Source: Symsagittifera roscoffensis (taxonomy: Eukaryota). From it: 64,000 bases of DNA. A program made the position numbers and the translations under genes. Within the stretch, counting starts at the first letter, position 1. Every line of letters starts with the position of its first letter. Positions 38,879 to 55,318 of this stretch are shown here, one piece after another. The stretch covers positions 46,049,437 through 46,113,436 of the forward strand of contig NC_087064.1 of the NCBI RefSeq assembly GCF_963678635.1, in the 5' to 3' direction. The notes under the pieces were generated by a model, which was given only the letters and a program-made list of their open reading frames with translations, searched no databases and was not told the DNA's origin.

Positions 38879-39136
38879 CATAAACGTAGTCTTCCCAATG
38901 CCAGCTTCTCCCTTGATCAACAACACTGCCCCTCTTGGTTCCCACGTCTTTTCATCTTCACTCGTGGCCAGTGCAGTGTTTCTCTGGTTGCCAGATGCAG
39001 CTAGTTTCTTTATAGCCCTCTTAGCATCCTTCACAAGTTGATTTCTTCCCACTGCATTTAGGCGTTTGTGTTCCAAGACCAGTTTTTGTTCTTCATTAGA
39101 TTTTGCATGGGAATCTTTCTGCTCATATTCGATACT
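38879..39136 (-). CDS. TEP1: TEP1-like gene, NACHT domain N-terminal exon with the Walker A P-loop.
   Basis: The acceptor is tattcgttatcag|AGTATC and the donor is TTTATG|GTAAGTAC, 86 codons, phase 0 to 0. The peptide is SIEYEQKDSHAKSNEEQKLVLEHKRLNAVGRNQLVKDAKRAIKKLAASGNQRNTALATSEDEKTWEPRGAVLLIKGEAGIGKTTFM. This is a GxAGxGKTT NACHT P-loop. The M called by the ORF track at 39076 is a TTG codon, not a real start. Confidence 0.65.
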
Positions 39137-39211
39137 CTGATAACGAATACCTCAAATTATTTTTGGTGAAGGAAAAATTGAATATAATACATTCAAAAGT
39201 TCTGCACTTAC

Positions 39212-39293
39212 CGTTGAGTATTCACTTTCGATCAAGTCCGATAATGCTTTGATGAAATACATCCCAAAACTCTTCTCATCCCTCTCTACGTAG
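39212..39293 (-). CDS. TEP1: TEP1-like gene, pre-NACHT exon.
   Basis: The acceptor is cttcaaacgaagttgtag|C, in phase 2. The donor is TCAACG|GTAAGT, in phase 0. The peptide is (S)YVERDEKSFGMYFIKALSDLIESEYST. Confidence 0.5.
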
Positions 39294-39368
39294 CTACAAC
39301 TTCAAACGAATTACAAAAGGACGCAATAATTTGGATGCATTTGGCAAAATTATTAAAATGTAGCTCAC

Positions 39369-39455
39369 CTGCGTAGTTCCACCAGCTCATTGTGCATATT
39401 CAGCACTCGGTCCCGAAATTCATACTGCTTTTTCACTTCCGCATCGAGAGCAGAT
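39369..39455 (-). CDS. TEP1: TEP1-like gene, pre-NACHT exon.
   Basis: The acceptor gattgtcttag|A and the donor CTACGCAG|GTGAGC are both in phase 2. The peptide is SALDAEVKKQYEFRDRVLNMHNELVELR. The in-frame TAA that closes the frame upstream lies 5 codons 5' of the first S, beyond the acceptor. The link to the 45190 exon across about 5.5 kb is inferred, not shown. Confidence 0.45.
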
Positions 39456-40779
39456 CTAAGACAATCTTATTCAAACACACTCGAAAAAGAAACCTAGAAA
39501 AAATAATATCATCCTTCAAAAAGAAACTAAGGTGAAACGCACATCCGGTGCTTCAAAAAGATCAGTGAACGTGAATTTGCCTCTAAATAAAATATATGTA
39601 AAAAAACAGCGAAATTATTGAAACCGGAAAAAAGACATCGCTGTTGAGGGGAATCCAACAACGATTTTGATTTCATAATTCGAACTATAAAAATTTGACT
39701 TATAGATTTTTAAACTGAAATGGTCTCATCTCCAAAACTACTGGGTTTCAAATCTTCCCCTAAAATGGACGACAGAATACAACTGCCTTTTCCGTAGAAA
39801 AAAAACTTCAATTGCAAAACCATTAAATTCGTAAATGGGATTCATAATCCAACGTATTTAATTTTAAAATATCCGGCTATTTTTTCTTAATTTAAATGTA
39901 CCTTAAAGGCAAAAATTTGAGCGATAATATCAGAATGAGAGTCCGCTTATACATCCGCTGGGAGTAATCTGACATCACACCACCAAAGGGTCAACAATTT
40001 GAAAATTATTTATTTCAAATTTTACACTTTAGAAAAATTTCCAAATAGAACATTACCAATCGAAGATCGGAAAGGAGTAATGAACGCAATCAAACAAACA
40101 AAAAATGATATTTTTTTTTTTAAAAAAAACATTAAAATTCAAAATTCAAAGAAAAAAATTGATTCCCTTTAACCTCTTTGAATTTCTAGAACAATTTATG
40201 ATTGGCCCTTTTTTGATAACATCAAGCCAACTTGAGAAAACTGGAGCAACAAGAAAAGTTCTTAATCCACAGGAACTCTTAAAAAAATAATTTCACTATC
40301 GATACTAAAAATCGTTCACGTTTTTTGCGCCATTTCCACGTTCGTATTTGGAGAGTGCTATTTACGTCACTTTCAAAAGATGAATTTCAACTTAACTCAA
40401 AAACTGAATAAATACCGAAGTGATTTCATCAATGCATCAATATGTATGAAAGCACATATGTAGTTTATAGAGACTTTTATGCACATTTTAAGACTTTTTC
40501 CCAGAAAAAAAAACAAAAATAATCAGCAAGTATAAGAGTCTTCACTAAATTCACTACTCTTAATAAAAATGTCATATCTAAGAAAGCAAAAGGCGTTAAA
40601 CAGTCAGTATAGGATTCCAGACAAACATCCTGGGAGTACATTGAGAGCACCCCGCTATAGTGTTGAGTATTTCAAACTTATCAAATTTAAGATCTGGAAA
40701 CTATTTTAGATCTTAAGTTTTTAGAAAAATTTTGCAACAGCATAAAATTTTTTAAAGCATCATTTTTTAAATCATTTTT

Positions 40780-41380
40780 TTGAAAAATATTGAAAAAACA
40801 TCATATCTCGAAAACCAAAGTATTTGAGCAGTGAACTTTGATAGCAAAATTAGCAAACATTCAGAGTAACTCGAAAGCACCTGACAACAGGGTGGGCAAT
40901 TTCAAATTTTGTGAAATTTTCAAATCTGAATTTTACGAAAATTTATGAAAAAATCAAAAACCGCCAGGCATAAGAAATTAAAAAGATTTGAGCAGTCATA
41001 TTTGGGTGCAAAAGCTGCAACGCCTCGAGGAACCACCACCTCACACTATAGAGAATTTCAACTTTTGTTCAGTTTTTTCATACATAAATTATTTGTTAAA
41101 TTTTGAAATAAACTTAAAAACCGCCATATCTCGAAACCTAAACGATTTGAGCAGTCACACTTTAAAGCAAGATTTGAAGCCCCTGAAAGCACTCTGACAG
41201 CACCCAATTACAGGGTTGAGAATCTCAACTTTTGTCAAATTTAAGGTTATTAGGGTGAAAAAAAAATCATATAAAACGTCACAACCCGGAAACTTCAGAG
41301 ATTTGAGCAGTCATATTTGGCGGCACAATTAGCAACGCCTGAAAATACACTGAGAAGAAAATACTGAAAACCTACAAAAT
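40780..41380. repeat. Second array of the same 165-bp satellite family, inside a TEP1-like intron.
   Basis: Units contain ..catatctcgaaa.c.aa...atttgagcagt.a..tt....gcaa....gcaac.c.tga.ag.ac.ctga.agcac..caa..acagggt.g..aatttcaa.ttttg. Confidence 0.7.
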
Positions 41381-53374: not shown

Positions 53375-53645
53375 AAAGTTGAAACAAGCCTCGAATTAGT
53401 TTTCAAAATTCTTTTCAGTTTCGGGCTCGATCCTGTGACCTATAGATTATAAGTAAAACACACTAACCACTCAGCCACTGTTGCTTAACTGATCACAAAC
53501 ACTAGCCAAAAAAAGCTGAGAACAGATGCTATGAAACTTTCAATGCTACATATCGTGATTATAGCAAAAGTGCCAAATAAGTGAACACTTTAATTTGCGA
53601 GTTAAAAAAAAGAAGGTTCGTACTAGGTCGCTAGTGTAAAAAAAA
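53375..53645 (-). mobile_element. SINE subfamily B copy, in a TEP1-like intron.
   Basis: It aligns with 21420-21725. The plus strand reads ..aagcctcgaattag..ctcagccactgttgc....tttgcgagttaaaaaaaagaaggttcgtacta. Confidence 0.45.
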
Positions 53646-54370
53646 ATCACCAACACAGAAATCAGAGTATTCACTACGCTCATGACTATAAACAAAATTA
53701 GACTTTCAAAACATAGCCAACTTACAGTTGGCAAATGGTAATGAACGCAAGAAAACAAAAAAAAAACGCTTGTTTTTTTATCAAAAATCTTCAACTTTTG
53801 AACTTCGAAGTAAAAATTAGATGGCCTTAAAACTCTTTGAATTCGTAGAACAGTTTATAATGGACACCTTTTTGTTAAAATTTCCCCAATTTGAGAAAAC
53901 TGGATCAATAGGTAAAACTTTTATTTCGCTGGGAAATCTGATAATTAATTCCCATTTTCGAAAATAGAAGTTGATCACGTTTTTCGTGACCTTTACAATT
54001 TTGCTATTCGATAGTGGAGTATGCCTTCCTTTCAACAATAGAAATGCACTGAACTGAAAAAAAACAAGTCAAACCGCGAAAAATCAAAACTGAGCGTGAA
54101 CAAATTTTAAGACTTTTTAAGACTACGTTCATTACTCTTAAAAGTAGTTTAAAAATTGATAGTTTTTAGTTGATTAGGACTTAAATCTTACAGTTTTGAA
54201 ACATCTTCACAAATCAGAGAAACAAGATGTGTATTAAAATGCGTTATGATAACCAAAACCGATCAAAAAACTTGGTTCGGTTATCAATTATAGGACTTTT
54301 TCGGTTTTCCACGCAAATCGCTCTGGTTAATTTTTCTTGAAAACGGTCTTTTCCTTTTGTGGTGACGAAC

Positions 54371-54508
54371 CTTGAGGATAAATTCAGGGTCTTGACTTCT
54401 CGCAATTTTGTTCAACTGCTGTGTTATATTGATCACAGCCTCATCAGCTGGGTTTGTGAAGTTTGGAGCAGCAATGAGAGCTCCGCTGATTGTGTTTATC
54501 AGCGTTTT
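54371..54508 (-). CDS. TEP1: TEP1-like gene, start of the TROVE domain.
   Basis: The acceptor is acattttag|AAAACG and the donor is CTCAAG|GTTCGT, phase 0 to 0, 46 codons. The peptide is KTLINTISGALIAAPNFTNPADEAVINITQQLNKIARSQDPEFILK. Joined to the next exon, PEFILK-LALYSRQ aligns with Ro60 EPMLFALAICSQ. Confidence 0.5.
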
Positions 54509-54677
54509 CTAAAATGTTACACTACTTCATTCAACAATTTATTAGAACAAAAAAAATTGAAAATCCCTTTAATTCCTTCACTTGGAAATATCCTTCATTT
54601 CACCTATTTATATGCAATACGGTAACAATCATAGCTCGGCTTGAAATGCAGCCAACCAATGATAAAGTTGTCTTTAC

Positions 54678-55020
54678 CTTGATTTTATCAAGAGCCTGTA
54701 TCGGTGATTCATCTGCGTCCCTCGACTCATTCAAAGGAGGGAAGATCGGTTTCTCAAATTGGAACCTGCGTTCCTCGTCTATTTGAACAGCATCCGATGA
54801 AAAATCATCTAAATCCACTAACACGGGAGCATCTTTAGGACCACCGAATGACACGCGAGGTTTCTCTATCAGTTTCTCATGCGACAAGACCGACGTCGGC
54901 AGATTCTGAGTAGTGGTTTTCCCATCGGAAAGATTGGAACCCTGTAGGTTCCCTGAGACCAGAGAGCTATGAGTTACTACTTCGATACCTACACGCGTTT
55001 CGAGAGCCCTCGTTTTCAAT
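54678..55020 (-). CDS. TEP1: TEP1-like gene, N-terminal region exon.
   Basis: A 58-nt intron precedes it, bounded by the acceptor tctattttag|ATTGAAAACG. The donor is ATCAAG|GTAAAG, in phase 0. The peptide is (R)LKTRALETRVGIEVVTHSSLVSGNLQGSNLSDGKTTTQNLPTSVLSHEKLIEKPRVSFGGPKDAPVLVDLDDFSSDAVQIDEERRFQFEKPIFPPLNESRDADESPIQALDKIK. Confidence 0.5.
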
Positions 55021-55078
55021 CTAAAATAGAGCGTATAATAAGCAGCAGCTCGAATCAATTAGTGTATAAAAACTTTAC

Positions 55079-55318
55079 CTTGTCTCTAAGGCTGATCGGC
55101 ATTGAAAACACTTTAACTCTGGTTTCAAATTCGAGTTCAAGTTCGATTTCAGTTTATTTGAACTGTTCTCAATCCCAGCTAGTCCGGGAGCCGCTTTGCT
55201 GCTGGAAAGCAAAGGATTCTCGAGTTGATGCTTCAAGCCACTATCCCCGCTGCTCAGTACTGTACTGTTTTTAACTGAAAATTTTCCAGGCAAGTTGGAT
55301 GATAGGCCTCCAGATAGC
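55079..55318 (-). CDS. TEP1: TEP1-like gene, N-terminal low-complexity exon. It is TEP1_N-repeat-like and more 5' exons probably lie upstream.
   Basis: The acceptor tgtcttttttag|G and the donor GACAAG|GTAAAG are both in phase 2. The peptide is ..LSGGLSSNLPGKFSVKNSTVLSSGDSGLKHQLENPLLSSSKAAPGLAGIENSSNKLKSNLNSNLKPELKCFQCRSALET(R). The SALETR motif recurs in the next exon as RALETR. Confidence 0.45.

Follow-up and report, generated by a model that had tools for sequence, protein, structure and literature searches.

Analysis of a 64-kb stretch of genomic DNA (the window), AT-rich at ~34% GC and eukaryotic in its gene structure, revealed that the segment between positions 38879 and 55318 is very probably the 5' portion of an orthologue of TEP1 (telomerase protein component 1, the vault/telomerase-associated p240) from an unannotated, marine-invertebrate-like metazoan genome. 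Encoded on the minus strand, the gene comes into the window upstream of 55318, exits at coordinate 1 and has at least 17 exons in the window, which together hold ~1,200 of the expected 2,300-2,900 codons. Its exons encode, in sequence, a low-complexity N-terminus, a TROVE RNA-binding ring, a Ro60-type vWA domain with a non-canonical metal ion-dependent adhesion site (MIDAS), a TeTIR/DUF4062 domain and a NACHT domain. An initial annotation of this DNA had placed the gene at 38879 to 55318; its observations largely hold, and the gene runs far beyond both ends. The copy is apparently an ordinary, intact-looking and functional orthologue that has received no automated annotation.

Database searches placed the predicted protein among the TEP1s. 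The best homologues in an initial protein search shared 36-39% identity and were named 'telomerase protein component 1', and Ro60-type proteins appeared only at E > 1e-17. A phmmer search against 1.84 billion representatives returned 276 proteins at E ≤ 1e-30. The best relatives were 2,300-2,900 aa long, were 46-49% identical over the TROVE-TeTIR region (E down to 4e-183) and carried the source name telomerase protein component 1(-like); they came from Anneissia japonica, Lytechinus pictus, Mizuhopecten yessoensis, Branchiostoma floridae, Mya arenaria, Priapulus caudatus, Tachypleus tridentatus and Styela clava, and an amoebozoan protein was also among the top matches. The TEP1-like proteins of the crinoid A. 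japonica (XP_033107315), the sea urchin L. pictus (XP_063952437), the bivalve M. yessoensis (XP_021378535) and the amphioxus B. floridae (C3Z4J5) were the best matches, at E = 1e-171 to 4e-183, and invertebrate proteins of this kind share Lys-rich linkers and a MIDAS without DxSxS with the gene described here. The model aligned end to end and colinearly with six TEP1 homologues, and the ranking of the database search was headed by TEP1s, not by Ro60, NWD or NPHP3 proteins. Together with the matching domain order, these full-length relatives bear out the suggestion in the initial annotation that the gene is a TEP1 orthologue or paralogue. No relative closer than ~49% identity was present in the collections searched, which indicates that the source lineage has no annotated genome in them. 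The 132-aa open reading frame (ORF) of exon 11 was 100% identical to a public protein (P0195) derived from the ENA assemblies ERZ25071366 and ERZ25878734; thus, the gene exists in public data only as short ORF fragments.

Exon model and domain order

The exon model was built from colinear tblastn matches of TEP1 homologues, after which frame-compatible GT/AG pairs were enumerated for each junction. Pfam searches of single minus-strand ORFs already matched TROVE (three ORFs, E down to 1.4e-31), DUF5920 and DUF4062. The model contains 13 minus-strand exons from 55318 to ~44957 (Table 1), where the initial annotation had counted 16 between 55318 and 44950. Spliced together, they read through 978 codons in one frame with no stops. 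All 12 introns are GT..AG with compatible phases, and the canonical splice sites and consistent phases described earlier therefore stand. An exon end at 44950 does not, since no GT follows that position; candidate donors lie at 45016, 44997, 44957 and 44908. Every sequence anchor quoted in the initial annotation (LIRMTHITKP, FMAMLRNLRNL, RSRQFPFRFF, WIFCNTSDIM, AGFSEQLLQFI, IFISSTFKDM, DLRWGV, FVGLVGNRLGFCP and GEAGIGKTT) was found in minus-strand exons in the place and order given, and the boundary of the Walker A exon at 38879 (TTT ATG/GTAAGT) was exact.

Analysis of the spliced model with Pfam revealed a TROVE match (PF05731) at E = 1.7e-96 (324.5 bits) that begins at model residue 183 and covers profile positions 9-441 of 442, so the predicted Ro60-like TROVE domain is present at full length. 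Sequence similarity to TROVE proteins in the Protein Data Bank (PDB) was confined to part of the domain (E = 3.6e-9 over 78 residues). An alternative donor for exon 5 is possible at 52193.

The region between TROVE and DUF4062 scored 27.1 bits for DUF5920 (cut-off 27). An AlphaFold model of this region, computed from a 15-sequence alignment (pLDDT 76.6, pTM 0.76), displayed a Rossmann-like alternation of strands and helices. Its best Foldseek matches in the PDB were the bacterial Ro/Rsr structure 2nvo (E = 1.1e-5) and the Ro60 structures 1yvp (TM 0.57) and 9nen, with TM scores between 0.53 and 0.57, followed by other vWA domains (TFIIH p44/p34, the MDN1 MIDAS and Ku). The model supports a Ro60-like vWA fold after TROVE. 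At the MIDAS site after strand 1 (residues 31-40 of the structure model), N-T-S-D-I(M) stands in place of D-x-S-x-S, which agrees with the Ro60-like vWA domain and degenerate MIDAS read initially from the sequence. DxSxS is also lacking in six of six aligned TEP1 homologues, so its loss is a trait of the family and not peculiar to this gene. Ro60 and bacterial Rsr share TROVE with the protein described here and provide the best structural matches of its vWA model; however, Ro60 has a functional MIDAS and no TeTIR, NACHT or WD40 region. Members of the Ro60/Rsr group have an intact MIDAS, a length of ~500-540 aa and nothing downstream, whereas here the MIDAS is degenerate, and DUF4062 and NACHT follow in the same frame.

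The DUF4062 profile was matched in full (positions 1-82 of 82, E = 9.8e-14), and the TeTIR core aligned with PDB 11gz_A, a crystal structure of this domain from human TEP1 (E = 1.9e-26); both results uphold the earlier call of a TIR-like DUF4062 domain. In the alignment with 11gz_A the equivalents of F902, S905, R914, R942-W943-G944, C959, R976 and E1008 are all kept, with F902, S905, R914 and the R942-W943-G loop encoded by exon 12 and C959, R976 and the catalytic E1008 by exon 13. Mutagenesis has identified F902, R914, R942, C959, R976 and E1008 as required for NAD+ hydrolase (NADase) activity (bioRxiv 10.64898/2026.09.21.753143; 10.64898/2026.05.01.722283). According to the literature, glutamate-dependent NADase activity is a property of the TeTIR domains of TEP1 from human, mouse, zebrafish, sponge and Dictyostelium, and the human protein is also active when incorporated in vaults (bioRxiv 10.64898/2026.05.01.722283).

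Human TEP1 and the gene described here have in common the order TROVE, vWA, TeTIR/DUF4062 and NACHT, the Walker A and Walker B motifs, and all of the NADase residues defined by mutagenesis. In NWD1, NWD2 and NPHP3 (TeTIR-NACHT STAND proteins) and in bacterial Swarozyc DUF4062 defence proteins, DUF4062/TeTIR likewise lies directly upstream of a NACHT-type P-loop. In contrast to the protein encoded here, these have no TROVE-vWA extension, and its best matches are all TEP1s. By homology with studied TEP1s, chiefly human TEP1, for which these properties were demonstrated, TROVE-vWA may bind small structured RNAs (vault RNA) and anchor the protein in the vault particle, and TeTIR would be a glutamate-dependent NAD+ hydrolase whose activity rises with oligomerization. 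The NACHT domain and repeat region, acting as a STAND switch, may control oligomerization and hence a concentration-dependent NADase activity.

The N-terminus differs from that of human TEP1. Here it is of S/L/N-rich low complexity, as in other invertebrate TEP1s, and the 30-residue TEP1_N repeats (PF05386) gave no Pfam match at E ≤ 0.1 on the spliced model. The SALETR and RALETR sequences, which had been taken for TEP1_N-like repeats, are a single 5-residue duplication. TEP1_N repeats are absent in invertebrate homologues as well, and their absence thus has no bearing on TEP1 membership. Exon 1 opens at an acceptor (TTTTTTAG/G, 55318) and not at the start of the gene, so the model must lack one or more upstream exons, including the one that holds the ATG. 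Upstream of 55318 the N-termini of homologues gave no significant match. Divergence between haplotypes near exons 1 and 2 is ~2%, too low to tell exon from intron.

Table 1. Predicted exons of the probable TEP1 gene in window coordinates; a slash marks a splice junction
Feature	Position	Strand	Evidence
Exon 1, low-complexity S/L/N-rich N-terminal region ending ...CRSALET[R]	55079..55318	-	Stop-free frame; donor AAG/GTAAAG, phase 2
Exon 2, LKTRALETR... acidic/low-complexity linker; last residues open the TROVE match	54678..55020	-	Acceptor TTTTAG/A completes split codon of exon 1; donor AAG/GTAAAG, phase 0
Exon 3, TROVE start (KTLINTISGALIAAPNF...QDPEFILK)	54371..54508	-	tblastn to TEP1 homologues, E to 2.6e-7; GT-AG, phase 0
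Exon 4, TROVE (LALYSRQQLNLRTVSNFLLA...WIEVAELYQ)	52737..52898	-	tblastn, E to 1e-18; splice sites
Exon 5, TROVE (...FPDFDEYQLGKYNK) and Lys-rich linker	52148..52327	-	Pfam TROVE E 2.9e-7 on ORF alone; tblastn
Exon 6, TROVE (KKKFTLKQLIRMTHITKPVNHVMSILGKKYP...)	51773..51935	-	Pfam TROVE E 6.4e-9; tblastn; GT-AG, phase 1
Exon 7, most conserved TROVE core (AGKRMRLATPETWETQVS...KLPFMAMLRNLRNL...)	50820..51028	-	Pfam TROVE E 1.4e-31 on ORF alone; tblastn 65-74% identity, E to 1e-31
Exon 8, TROVE end (KTIIRSRQFPFRFFSAF...)	50461..50557	-	tblastn; acceptor TTGTTTCAG/A; donor AGG/GTAAGT
Exon 9, Lys-rich linker and vWA-like start, beta-1 and degenerate MIDAS (KTWIFCNTSDIM)	50020..50294	-	tblastn, E to 2e-14; structure model
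Exon 10, vWA-like middle (MIEVGVLLGLMCQHACE...)	49390..49659	-	tblastn; splice sites; inside vWA fold model
Exon 11, vWA-like C-terminal part (IDNLVIL...NDICIAGFSEQLLQFIAERG...) and linker to TeTIR	47467..47918	-	Pfam DUF5920 E 1.9e-7; tblastn, E to 1e-23
Exon 12, N-terminal half of TeTIR/DUF4062 (VRIFISSTFKDMQMER...IDLRWGV)	46600..46773	-	Pfam DUF4062; alignment to PDB 11gz_A
Exon 13, TeTIR core (LAVCLD..., GNRLG, SITELE)	44957..45190	-	Pfam DUF4062; PDB 11gz alignment; 3' end uncertain
Candidate exon N0 (YVERDEKSFGMYFIKALSDLIESEYST), possibly last TeTIR helix	39212..39293	-	Frame fits phase-2 donor 44957 and N1 acceptor; strong donor ACG/GTAAGT; 75-nt intron after
Exon N1, pre-NACHT helix and Walker A (AVGRNQLVKDAKRAI...GAVLLIKGEAGIGKTTFM)	38879..39136	-	Profile columns 119-180, 32.1 bits, E 8e-9; donor ATG/GTAAGT, phase 0
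Exon N2, NACHT continuation (ASLIKEFEG...LFYHFVGGAESVESILTRLLKNF...)	10237..10415	-	Profile columns 176-233, E 0.007 (fragment 10499-10230)
Exon N3, NACHT Walker B region (KRPFLLFFDGLERM...NLNWVPKVLPK; motif LLFFDGLE), last exon in the window	1688..1868	-	Profile columns 236-283, E 0.1 alone (fragment 2011-1676)

NACHT exons and the downstream course of the gene

Several searches downstream of exon 13 gave little or nothing. By tblastn, ten full-length TEP1s had no match in the window past exon 13, and fragments that include NACHT yielded just a weak Walker A match. Pfam returned nothing at E ≤ 1 for minus-strand ORF fragments between 44960 and 23700. We also constructed a TEP1 C-terminal profile that covers the 650 residues downstream of the TeTIR core, using 67 full-length homologues, and ran it against all 3,600 six-frame fragments. 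This analysis revealed exons N1, N2 and N3, which lie colinearly on the same strand and have abutting ranges of profile columns (Table 1). The start of a NACHT domain with the Walker A motif GEAGIGKTT, as described in the initial annotation, is thus a real exon. In the Pfam check that it proposed, TROVE and DUF4062 were matched by the 13-exon model; for NACHT, N1 alone scored 14.8 bits, below threshold, and is significant only with the TEP1-specific profile. The N2 acceptor (CATTTCAG/GCT at 10415, phase 0) fits the N1 donor, and the N3 acceptor (TTTCAG/T at 1868) completes the codon left by the phase-2 donor of N2 (AA/GTTAGT at 10237); N3 ends at the donor AAA/GTGAGC at 1688. When N1, N2 and N3 were spliced, Pfam gave 29.8 bits for NPHP3_N, above its cut-off, and 25.6 bits for NACHT (cut-off 26.7).

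The public contig ena:ERZ25878734:ctg24344l represents the same locus, with 99.7-99.9% identity to the window, and continues beyond coordinate 1. On it lie the next two exons outside the window, which match profile columns 284-376 (E = 5.5e-31) and 372-420 (E = 5.7e-10) and have compatible junction phases. The five NACHT exons spliced together, three from the window and two from this contig, matched Pfam NACHT at 39.8 bits over positions 2-165 of 167. Because colinear, phase-compatible NACHT exons continue on the contig, the gene leaves the window inside the NACHT/helical region; it is still within this region at position 20115 of the contig stretch examined, where that stretch ends. A truncation of the gene at 38879 was considered and rejected, as the exons revealed by the TEP1-specific profile at 10.4 kb and 1.8 kb are colinear and two more follow on the same-locus contig. 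The introns of the NACHT region measure 28.5 kb (with a nested G protein-coupled receptor (GPCR) gene), 8.4 kb, 2.6 kb and 6.8 kb.

The ~5.7 kb between exon 13 and the next candidate exon, and the complete same-strand GPCR gene with its own ATG in the 28.5-kb gap, could also be read as two genes: a short TROVE-vWA-TeTIR gene ending at ~44.9 kb and an independent TeTIR-less NACHT gene with exons scattered downstream of 39.1 kb, with the GPCR gene intergenic. We regard this arrangement as highly improbable. Although several database homologues of 800-950 aa end after DUF4062, as the shorter gene would, these are truncated predictions, and two of them (P0001 and P0005) reach Walker A before they stop. 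A TEP1-type protein with NACHT only is not known, and according to the TeTIR paper the domain always lies directly upstream of NACHT. In addition, N1 includes the conserved pre-NACHT segment found after TeTIR in homologues, and the reading frame after exon 13 has no terminal exon supported by homology.

Integrity of the gene and points against the assignment

Several points weigh against an intact TEP1 orthologue. The exon model is a prediction from genomic sequence. Exons 1-3 contain no in-frame ATG, and the start codon was not found. Exons 1 and 2 lack homology support, their resemblance to the N-termini of homologues being compositional only (E > 0.7). Taken singly, N2 and N3 score weakly (E = 0.007 and 0.1); their support comes from colinearity, splice phase and the strong exons downstream of them. 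Across the window and the 8.3 kb beyond it, no WD40 match and no profile match to the rest of the TEP1 C-terminal part was detected. A WD40 region of ~1,000 aa would be expected after NACHT, outside the window, and a second profile made from homologue residues ~600-1500 after TeTIR found no match in the window or on the same-locus contig, as expected if that part lies further downstream. We infer NADase activity, RNA binding and vault association from human and other TEP1s. Finally, ~55-80 homologue residues between the TeTIR core and NACHT (IP..W..DF...LK.RIR.SG.EVYDGYPC.WGGV..GKP.V.GL) were not located between 44957 and 39293.

In homologues ~110 residues separate the position where exon 13 ends from the pre-NACHT helix, and the unlocated segment corresponds approximately to human residues 1030-1100. 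Low-threshold tblastn, a profile search of 45300-38800 and scans for conservation between haplotypes revealed no signal above background for it, and pooled tblastn with 66 homologue segments gave no more signal than the opposite-strand control. Candidate exon N0 (39293-39212, ending ...FGMYFIKALSDLIESEYST/GTAAGT) resembles the homologue helix FGxRVLNNLWxAIxKxY by eye only, and its profile score was non-significant. Two further candidates chosen by eye, 39810-39712 and 39466-39290, conflicted with each other and were dropped. On the minus strand at 39692-39802 there is also a weak match (E = 0.12) to the homologue segment FFYFRDS.FLS.VP...KP.F..E; it crosses an in-frame TAA, and the end of exon 13 is a rival match to that stretch of the homologues. 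Either the missing TeTIR exons escape detection through divergence or small size, or the TeTIR domain of this lineage is shorter. An outright loss of its C-terminal third (the beta-hairpin and alpha-E, ...LK.RIR.SG.EVYDGYPC.WGGV..GKP...) is in our view unlikely. If it were true, exon 13 would splice in phase 2 from 44957 directly to the 39293-39212 exon, and a naturally shortened TIR-like NADase module would stand beside NACHT, with a complete GPCR gene also housed in the 28.5-kb intron of the gene.

To assess conservation of the exons, the window was compared with a second, divergent haplotype contig, ena:ERZ25071366:ctg6280l (91-97.6% identical). Exons differed at 0.75% of positions (15/2,007) and non-exon sequence at 4.2% (303/7,252). 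There were no indels in exons, and the exon differences comprised 7 synonymous and 8 non-synonymous changes, two of the 15 falling in the last 57 nt of exon 13. This haplotype also lacks 3.2 kb (40847-44020) of the intron after exon 13, an insertion/deletion polymorphism; no essential exon can therefore lie there.

These data bear on whether the locus is a decaying or truncated TEP1 copy, either a pseudogene or a partial duplicate, in which TROVE-vWA and the TeTIR core survive without a full STAND protein. The absence of an ATG and of part of the TeTIR C-terminal region, the in-frame stop in the weak TeTIR-like match at 39802-39692, and the very long introns around the NACHT exons, full of transposon remnants, would fit such a copy. 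However, ~1,200 modelled codons contain no stop or frameshift, all junctions are GT-AG with matching phases, and the motifs of the catalytic site and the P-loop are intact. Between haplotypes, divergence is 5.6-fold lower in exons than in introns and no indel falls in an exon, and the exon that continues NACHT on the same contig is very well conserved (E = 5.5e-31). Decay or truncation is accordingly a very remote prospect, and an intact TEP1 orthologue remains the preferred reading.

The initial annotation had considered the gene worth attention for joining TROVE to a TIR-like/STAND module. The combination is present, but it was already published for TEP1 in 2026 (bioRxiv 10.64898/2026.05.01.722283; 10.64898/2026.09.21.753143). 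The importance of the locus lies mainly in annotation, as a STAND gene of 2,300-2,900 codons spread over >60 kb with 28-kb introns. Introns of this size mean that ORF-based gene calling leaves only fragments of 60-150 aa in public protein collections, P0195 among them. The gene is a further invertebrate TEP1 in which the catalytic set of the recently described TeTIR NADase is intact; it agrees with the published view of the TROVE-vWA-TeTIR-NACHT design as ancient and conserved, and opens no new question.

Other features of the window

The GPCR gene nested on the same strand in the 28.5-kb TEP1 intron is a complete class-A gene of three exons (18070-23581, minus strand; exons at ~23581-23123, 19239-18835 and 18621-18070). 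Its product starts MNGSSVDLF..., contains a DRF motif and matches Pfam 7tm_1 at E = 3.7e-18. The same intron contains, on the plus strand at 24240-24581, a remnant of the C-terminal dimerization domain of a hAT-family transposase (Dimer_Tnp_hAT, E = 8.3e-9). On the plus strand at 49599-50069, antisense to TEP1 exons 9-10, a 156-aa ORF begins with ATG and has no domain support; it is most likely a by-product of coding-strand composition.

Repeats of several kinds were also identified. A dispersed family has copies at 43509-44387, 37311-38224, 17185-17615 and 41375-41554 that are 83-93% identical; they carry a pseudo-ORF (...TTKSFQIELRVANQIGRI.FVRLNISHFD...) and lie in the introns on either side of the Walker A exon. 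In the intron just upstream of N3, a 1.64-kb tandem duplication (2032-3673 and 3673-5312) with copies ~99% identical was evident from duplicated ORFs and from double blastn matches of public contigs. Just upstream of N2, the interval 10879-12537 contains a 166-bp satellite (4.9 copies, 10980-11789) followed by A/G-rich minisatellites (11828-12537), and on the minus strand these repeats read as long F/S-rich pseudo-ORFs of 120-185 aa.

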